Below, one piece after another: positions 22,997 through 23,407 of a DNA stretch of 64,000 nucleotides. Position numbers and translations under genes: made by a program. This DNA comes from a phage: NCBI GenBank assembly GCA_029945195.1, contig GCA_029945195.1_4117.1, one strand, 5' to 3'. The notes under the pieces are model-generated. The model saw nothing but the letters and a program-made list of their open reading frames with translations. It was not told where the DNA came from and did not search any database. Numbering within the stretch: position 1 is the first letter of the stretch; each line of letters opens with the position of its first letter.

Positions 22997-23407
22997 ATGA
23001 TTGAAATGGAAGGAACTCTGGTGTATGATCCAGAACGTGGCACTATGAAAAAGAAGAAGGACTTCTGGTTAGTACTACAACTTCCATTACAGTTGGTTCG
23101 ATACTACCAGTACTTCATCAGAACTGACTTACATATTGATATTAAAGACCCACAATGGGGAGCACATGTCAGTATCGTTCGTGGTGAAGTGCCACCAAAT
23201 CCAGAGTACTGGAAAAAGTACGATGGAATGAAAGTAAAGATAAAGTTCAATCCTTGTATTGAGATAGTAAAAGATAAAAAGAATCCAGGTTCATTCTTTA
23301 TCATTGAATTTGAAGATGATTTCATCACACATATTAGAAATGAACTAGGACTACCAACCAAGTACTTTAAATATCACATCACTGTAGGTAGAACCTACTA
23401 CGATTAA
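22997..23407 (+). CDS. 2H phosphoesterase family protein (LigT/Acb1-like; putative cyclic-nucleotide or RNA 2',3'-cyclic phosphodiesterase)
   Basis: Two H-x-S/T-x motifs (AHVSIV and YHITVG) about 70 residues apart in a ~136-aa protein. Confidence 0.5.
   Translation: MIEMEGTLVYDPERGTMKKKKDFWLVLQLPLQLVRYYQYFIRTDLHIDIKDPQWGAHVSIVRGEVPPNPEYWKKYDGMKVKIKFNPCIEIVKDKKNPGSFFIIEFEDDFITHIRNELGLPTKYFKYHITVGRTYYD

Follow-up and report, generated by a model that had tools for sequence, protein, structure and literature searches.

A gene at 22997..23407 (+) of a 64,000-nucleotide stretch of phage DNA (the window, hereafter) encodes a stand-alone protein of 136 amino acids, from an ATG start to a TAA stop, that is best read as an RNA 2',3'-cyclic phosphodiesterase healing cleaved tRNA or RNA ends. 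We place the probability of this reading at roughly one half; the gene product would be a minimal, metal-independent 2H phosphoesterase from a jumbo-phage-specific branch of the 2H-SAK family, and we infer both its substrate and its pathway. The identification of a 2H phosphoesterase, with which the original prediction began, is borne out by the motifs, their conservation and the predicted fold. The further assignment to the anti-CBASS Acb1 type stands as far as size and motif spacing go, but membership in the Acb1 family fails on profile comparison, lid, extended motif and gene context.

The window DNA is 99.9% identical to that of Escherichia phage SP27 and 97-99% identical to that of 121Q, PBECO4, phAPEC6 and G17, all of them members of Asteriusvirus, the Rak2-like jumbo myophages with genomes of ~350 kb. 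The deposited genomes call the gene a 'hypothetical protein' (e.g. 121Q gene 531). The sole Pfam family matched by the protein is PF22547 (2H-SAK), with a score of 25.8 bits (E 1.4e-5), just short of the 27-bit cut-off, and with only the C-terminal third aligned. The same family was matched by all 20 close homologues (best 5.7e-10) and, above the cut-off at 28.4 bits, by a distant clade member with ~25% identity (L047). A precomputed 2H-SAK label was present on 24 of the 29 homologues from the first search, and the UniRef name of the homologue from Yersinia phage fHe-Yen9-04 reads 'Swiss Army Knife 2H phosphoesterase domain-containing protein'. The protein further matches PHROG 12204, to which no function is assigned, over its full length (3.7e-67). 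The SAK name reportedly originated with Burroughs and Aravind in 2016. 2H-SAK takes its name from the 'Swiss Army Knife' RNA-repair proteins that papers from the Aravind group describe; a full-text literature search for the 'Swiss Army Knife' 2H domain returned nothing, and the RlaP preprint is also without mention of it. The window protein shares with 2H-SAK the Pfam match and the association with RNA-repair genes seen in its relatives, but it stands alone instead of forming part of a multidomain 'Swiss Army Knife' protein, and its jumbo-phage branch has an N-terminal GxLxYDPxR motif of its own.

An exhaustive profile search recovered 1,098 cluster representatives at E<=1e-3, mainly stand-alone proteins of 130-170 aa. 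Among cultured phages the family is found in about 76 records, nearly all with genomes >300 kb; the listed holders are the Rak2-like genera, Vibrio phage 2.275.O, Atu_ph07, phage G, RsoM2USA and a 595-kb uncultured phage. IMG/VR contributed 35 loci, on contigs nearly all >300 kb and up to 608 kb in length, and a search of 185,579 prokaryotic genomes yielded only 4 MAG contigs, which are probably phage DNA. The family is essentially confined to phages >300 kb. The Pfam and PHROG families, their predicted general role and the Acb1 label on one homologue were already known; new here are the failed tests of Acb1 membership, the family's confinement to jumbo phages, and its repeated linkage to RNA ligase, phosphatase, Thg1, TROVE and YqeY genes.

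Catalytic motifs and predicted fold

The presence of exactly two H-x-S/T motifs about 70 residues apart, noted in the original prediction, holds in full. Among the four histidines of the protein (positions 46, 57, 112 and 127), H57 (HVSI, nt 23165-23176) and H127 (HITV, nt 23375-23386) alone stand in such a motif, at a distance of exactly 70 residues, as against 69 in T4 Acb1 (H44 and H113). The window has 75 ORFs of at least 100 aa, and none but this one bears two or more H-x-S/T-hydrophobic motifs. Both motifs are invariant in the 20 close homologues, and in an alignment of 62 homologues (25-54% identity) H57 and H127 are the sole invariant columns, with S or T at position +2 in 62/62 sequences in either motif. 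From this conservation we predict a first catalytic motif, H57-V-S59-I-V-R62-G63 (HxSxxRG; 23165..23185, +), in which H57 recurs in all 62 sequences, R62 in 45/62 and G63 in 58/62. The predicted second catalytic motif, H127-I-T129-V-G131-R132 (HxTxxR; 23375..23392, +), is as in E. coli ThpR, and here H127 is retained in 62/62, T129 in 59/62, G131 in 57/62 and Arg or Lys at 132 in 49/62.

Ahead of this core lies an N-terminal extension (residues 1-23; 22997..23065, +), composed of a β-strand (residues 2-10) and a loop that bears the family motif G6-x-L-x-Y10-D-P12-x-R14 (G6 in 60/62, Y10 in 56/62 and P12 in 59/62 homologues). The extension might possibly act as a substrate-binding element or as a lid, the latter role being our own proposal; an N-terminal lid is known from another phage 2H phosphodiesterase. 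In two family members, paired CxxC motifs occur on additional segments (N-terminal in P0238, C-terminal in P0076), and the resemblance of these CxxC...CxxC segments to zinc ribbons hints at the binding of nucleic-acid polymers.

An AlphaFold2 model, built on the alignment of the 20 close homologues, attained a mean pLDDT of 90.5 and a pTM of 0.83, with a lower pLDDT of about 72 in the N-terminal loop. The modelled chain forms two β-α-β units (E24-29/H31-44/E56-62 and E99-105/H108-116/E126-132), in each of which the HxS/T motif is carried on the closing strand, after the helix. This corresponds in the model to the expected pseudo-twofold 2H layout, with a predicted bilobed α+β fold and an internal duplication similar to those of solved 2H enzymes. 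The hydrophobic strand perceived near the N-terminus, 'FWLVLQL' (residues 23-29), coincides with the modelled strand E24-29. As the predicted fold is that of the 2H enzymes, and the finding of another fold was what would have spoken against it, the 2H assignment stands.

Comparison of the model with solved structures gave the following values: 7.2 for Acb1 (7t27), 6.8 for MHV ns2 (4z5v), 6.4 and 6.1 for Usb1 (5v1m and 6pfq), 6.0 each for the penguinpox cGAMP PDE (9bkq) and a LigT-type protein (1vgj), 5.9 for phage PDE-9 (9q2y), 5.8-5.6 for the CPDase or LigT-type structures 5h7f, 2d4g and 4qak, and 5.6 for CNPase (2xmi). Several viral immune-evasion phosphodiesterases are among the nearest solved structures. 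Foldseek searches of PDB and BFVD placed 2H enzymes on top, with weak scores (E>=0.008 for every hit except the orthologue of the protein itself), and gave no separation of Acb1 from LigT-type proteins. Sequence searches of the PDB, with the single sequence and with the profile, returned chance matches alone, such as a circovirus capsid and PrgK.

Relationship to Acb1 and other 2H enzymes

The affinity to Acb1 merits scrutiny, as it underlies a different view of function, in which counter-defence would be achieved by a 2H core that breaks down oligonucleotide immune signals, cyclic or linear. Candidate signals would be the cGAMP or cA3 of CBASS, the cOA of type III CRISPR systems, or molecules resembling 2'-5' oligoadenylate, and the N-terminal YDPxR segment would serve as a lid replacing the C-terminal lid of Acb1. 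The numerical resemblance that suggested this is real, for the motif spacing is nearly the same and both are compact 2H proteins of ~150 aa. Phage 2H phosphodiesterases, moreover, vary in structure and may have their lid at the N-terminus, and some relatives of the window protein lie near genes of counter-defence type. At the level of sequence profiles, however, the kinship does not hold. The window protein had no match to the Acb1 model PF23474 even at E<=10, whereas T4 Acb1 (gp57B) scored 202.7 bits. In hhalign, the 20-homologue profile matched T4 Acb1 with 0.4% probability, and the 62-homologue alignment matched a 16-sequence Acb1 alignment with 16% probability over 37 columns that are out of register, the second repeat of the family being paired with the first of Acb1. 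Such a pairing reflects the generic duplicated 2H unit.

The differences extend to the active site. In the account of Acb1 by Hobbs et al. (PMC9117128), the C-terminal lid comprises residues 145-152, bases are stacked by Y12, W74, F107 and W147, and E141 contacts adenine; the lid, W147 and E141 are conserved in the 16-sequence Acb1 alignment. Past its second histidine the window protein has a tail of 9 residues, compared with 39 in T4 Acb1, and therefore the Acb1 lid, W147 and E141 are without counterpart. Position +5 of the motifs, which is Tyr in 14/16 and 15/16 Acb1 sequences, is Arg in the first (45/62) and Arg or Lys in the second motif (49/62) of the present family, such that the HxTxxY of Acb1 (T4 gp57B; Erwinia phage FBB1, PDB 7T26/7T27) is set against HxS/TxxR. 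Gene context differs too, the Acb1 gene of T4-like phages adjoining 57A. We conclude from these sequence comparisons that the window protein probably shares its chemistry with Acb1 and is of similarly small size, yet lies outside the Acb1 family.

Two further cases bear on this point. A single uncultured phage (L037, IMG/VR 3300042864_002412; similarly L038) encodes both a member of the 2H family and a bona fide Acb1, at 5001-5396 and 9796-10203, 4.4 kb apart on opposite strands; the latter matches PF23474 and retrieves T4 Acb1 in phmmer at 2.7e-12. Their co-existence in one phage argues against redundancy. Conversely, gp116 of Bacillus phage G (JN638751.1 67276-67665), a homologue with 31% identity from the same PHROG 12204, already goes by 'anti-CBASS nuclease Acb1' in the literature, a name drawn from an HHpred match and not from experiments (PMC12484599). 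This label could be counted in favour of the counter-defence view, but judging by the family's sequences it is probably too specific, and as it is already in print on HHpred alone, an over-specific label is spreading.

Among cellular 2H enzymes, ThpR shares its second motif (125-HxTxxR-130), whose Arg contacts the phosphate (PMC4201822), with the window protein. Its first motif is HxTxxF, with Phe48 where the window protein has the Arg of HxSxxR, and ThpR/LigT proteins differ further in being about 35-45 residues longer, with a histidine spacing of 82 rather than 70. No match to the LigT_PEase and 2_5_RNA_ligase2 Pfam models was obtained at E<=10. Divergent phage 2H enzymes, like the window protein, were recently surveyed by Doherty et al. 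2025 (bioRxiv 10.1101/2025.08.21.671373), who studied 75 such phosphodiesterases, many from huge phages and some fused to HAD/Pnkp-like phosphatase domains. Their substrate range follows the structural group or core structure, and two structural groups cleaved 0/18 signalling nucleotides, which weighs against a signal-degrading role. Two proteins of that survey were considered as family members and rejected: PDE-11 (NC_062752) is gp180 of Maribacter phage Colly_1, another 2H protein, and the Atu_ph07 entry is gene 3, whereas the family member in that phage sits at 454 kb. Taken with the repeated linkage of relatives to RNA ligase, Thg1, TROVE and YqeY genes described below, these data leave the Acb1-like counter-defence role as a tentative option, with a modest chance of being correct.

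Gene neighbourhoods in the window and in relatives

In the window, the 2H gene is followed by a gene for a LysM-lysozyme (23543-24502) and, just 3' of it, by one for a homologue of the HPF/RaiA (S30AE) ribosome hibernation factor (24519..24851, +; PF02482, 3.3e-10), an order also seen in phage CBB; the hibernation factor gene is a syntenic neighbour of 2H in Rak2-like phages. About 3 kb downstream lies a CCA-adding tRNA nucleotidyltransferase (26451..27563, +; PolyA_pol and PolyA_pol_RNAbd domains, 59% identical to CBB gp192), a candidate partner in tRNA end repair. Upstream by 13 kb is a candidate RNA-repair partner, RlaP, the RNA-ligase-associated Pol-β nucleotidyltransferase (8055..10325, +; PF10127, 4.4e-15, with LAGLIDADG_3). 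The RlaP gene is interrupted by an in-frame insertion of 345 aa (about nt 9018-10052) that is missing from the 410-aa orthologue of 121Q. It starts with Cys (QHGYD|CYSFDTEF...), ends with ...TALHGN followed by Cys (|CKHAMH), and encloses the LAGLIDADG_3 domain; by its sequence it resembles an intein that bears a homing endonuclease and is lodged in a gene for RNA repair. In SP27 and 121Q, the Rnl1 and Pnkp genes precede the 2H gene by about 50 kb, beyond the window.

Within the window, tblastn with CBB gp181 (the ligase), gp183 and gp195 found nothing, Pfam scans of selected ORFs, including the seven upstream of RlaP, revealed no RNA ligase, and no tRNA genes were present; Escherichia and Klebsiella Rak2-like phages are not among the organisms with the CBB-type ligase. 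A scan for promoters and terminators over 19-27.8 kb gave no excess over shuffles, and operon boundaries were therefore not drawn. Elsewhere in the window we observed a DUF2201 metallopeptidase-vWA protein (45113-46537), of a kind described for group 2.2 jumbo phages as the partner of a MoxR-type ATPase, a thymidylate synthase (48181-49110) and a very large ORF of 1,841 aa (52038-57563, -).

The relatives present a closer association. In Mimasvirus CBB, whose 2H protein is 57% identical, the order is RNA ligase (PF09414), HNH, DUF2828 'RNA-binding protein', a small ORF, 2H, one further gene, lysozyme, HPF and, farther on, CCA enzyme, Nudix, Grx and YqeY. The CBB locus counts a TROVE-like gene beside its RNA ligase. 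Comparison of this locus (L013 4622-9411) with window positions 22282-23407 reveals eight extra genes in CBB between gp176, the orthologue of ORF 22282-22638, and the 2H gene, the RNA ligase, HNH endonuclease and DUF2828 protein among them; Asteriusvirus has only two tiny ORFs in their place. The gap represents either an indel or the loss of an RNA-repair cassette. In Salmonella phage Munch a CBB-type ligase lies about 2 kb upstream of the 2H gene. A clade of huge phages (L045-L051), with 2H proteins 25-31% identical to the query and 62-87% among themselves, has the order EF-Ts, one gene, HNH, 2H, His_Phos_1 (adjacent or overlapping), HNH, one gene, RNA_ligase and AAA. Elsewhere, a TROVE/Ro60-vWA gene and an AAA gene precede 2H (L055), and in two loci with 2H proteins 53% identical (L004 and L018) the end of Thg1 lies 1-12 nt ahead of the 2H gene. 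Another homologue (L011) has RRF, RMF and a weak Thg1 match nearby; the same phage contig carries an IS605 OrfB/TnpB (Cas12f-like) gene at 9159-10289, a few kb from that homologue. Two aminoacyl-tRNA synthetase genes stand upstream in L016, and YqeY 1.7 kb upstream in L003. In P0035 (335 aa) the family's 2H domain is fused to a YqeY domain; the YqeY/GatB-tail is a tRNA-binding module.

A pooled Pfam scan of 228 neighbouring ORFs from 19 diverse loci returned RNA_ligase, EF_TS and His_Phos_1 four times each and the one bona fide Acb1 (in L037), besides class I tRNA synthetase models, PolyA_pol, YqeY, TROVE, Nudix, SIR2 and ADP-ribosylglycohydrolase. Two contexts were uninformative: one at a contig end (L006) and one with glycosyltransferases and Cpn10 (L017). 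Loose co-occurrence of this kind, with no background rate behind it, is weak evidence, while adjacency and fusion are stronger. An RNA-repair association is present in the relatives. In the window itself it is loose, RlaP lying 13 kb before the 2H gene and the CCA enzyme 3 kb after it.

Some of these neighbours could be read differently, namely as pointing to an enzyme of NAD/ADP-ribose pathways. Its substrate would be ADP-ribose 1''-2'' cyclic phosphate (Appr>p), or else a cyclic signal of the ADPR type, and its product would feed nearby Macro and Nudix enzymes, either in clean-up after KptA-type removal of a 2'-phosphate or in counteraction of NAD-derived immune signals. The run from 26451 to 29379 comprises the CCA enzyme, a Nudix hydrolase (27671..28072, +; PF00293, 1.1e-12), a glutaredoxin (by the 121Q annotation) and a Macro-domain protein (28903..29379, +), the Nudix and Macro genes lying 4-6 kb downstream of the 2H gene, where we regard them as context only. 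This run is conserved in CBB, where a YqeY gene comes after that for glutaredoxin; no YqeY homologue was found in the 64-kb window. Some relatives have SIR2, NAMPT, an NMNAT-like gene, DUF4326 or ADP-ribosylglycohydrolase in their vicinity, and Appr>p is a known or predicted substrate of 2H enzymes. Against this, the Macro match is below the Pfam cut-off (PF01661, 16.4 bits), though the 121Q orthologue is annotated 'macro domain-containing protein'; KptA/Tpt1 was not found in the regions examined; and the NAD/ADP-ribose genes are kilobases away, never adjacent or fused to 2H, the adjacent genes being RNA ligase, Thg1 and His phosphatase instead and the fused domain YqeY. We consider an NAD/ADP-ribose substrate improbable.

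A proposed role in the healing of RNA ends

We therefore return to the healing of RNA ends as the preferred reading. H57 and H127 would act as general acid and base on the 2',3'-cyclic phosphate at an RNA 3' end, the likely substrates being tRNAs cut by host anticodon nucleases or by other metal-independent RNases. Opening of the ring would yield a phosphomonoester, with R62 and R132 holding the phosphate in the manner of R130 in ThpR. This 'healing' step would precede dephosphorylation, after which the end may be resealed by ligation or rebuilt by nucleotide re-addition through other phage enzymes. The candidates comprise Pnkp and Rnl1 from another part of the genome, the window's own RlaP and CCA-adding enzyme and, in relatives, a second RNA ligase, the histidine phosphatase or Thg1. 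Comparative genomics has likewise regarded the 2H enzymes, RlaP, CCA enzyme and Thg1 of jumbo phages as an RNA-repair kit.

Several lines favour this proposal: 2H-SAK as the sole Pfam family; linkage to ligase, Thg1, TROVE or His_Phos_1 genes in separate lineages; the YqeY fusion and the zinc-ribbon-like segments; an HxTxx[R/K] second motif as in ThpR, unlike the HxTxxY of Acb1; a genomic toolkit of Rnl1, Pnkp, RlaP and CCA-adding enzyme; and the true Acb1 beside a family member in L037. On the other side, no ligase shares an operon with the window gene, and the window lacks both the ligase and the TROVE genes of CBB type. T4-type Pnkp is already able to resolve cyclic ends, and a separate CPDase is therefore not obviously needed. 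Jumbo phages cluster many auxiliary genes, and some neighbourhoods have an NAD/ADP-ribose or counter-defence character (SIR2, NAMPT, ADP-ribosylglycohydrolase, Acb1 at 4.4 kb, and an MBL protein with a weak Apyc1 match); the viral immune-evasion enzymes among the nearest solved structures also count against it.

A related view, which we hold to be rather doubtful, takes the jumbo-phage-only branch as a new specificity class of phage phosphodiesterases, either an immune-signal degrader with an N-terminal YDPxR lid or a dedicated tRNA-end healer. In the former version the signal could be one beyond the range of Acb1; in the latter the enzyme could join Thg1, CCA-adding enzyme and RlaP to repair tRNA by rebuilding it instead of religating it. 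Some other RNA transaction, such as a 2'-5' nuclease or ligase activity, Usb1-like 3' trimming that leaves a cyclic phosphate, or non-catalytic binding of RNA ends, is very unlikely, as no particular feature favours it; non-catalytic binding is further disfavoured by the fact that the two histidines never vary.

The gene, present in some 76 sequenced jumbo phages and on 35 IMG/VR contigs, is probably best annotated as a 2H-SAK-type phosphoesterase, and not as an Acb1 orthologue. Were the branch indeed a new specificity class, the 'Acb1' label of gp116 would be wrong or at least incomplete, and were the protein a degrader of signalling nucleotides instead, it would represent a new structural class of immune-evasion phosphodiesterase. 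If the repair reading is true, the tRNA-repair kit of the Rak2-like coliphages, with Rnl1, Pnkp, RlaP, CCA enzyme and a 2H CPDase, would be larger than that of T4, which would bear on how phage-therapy candidates escape anticodon-nuclease defences.
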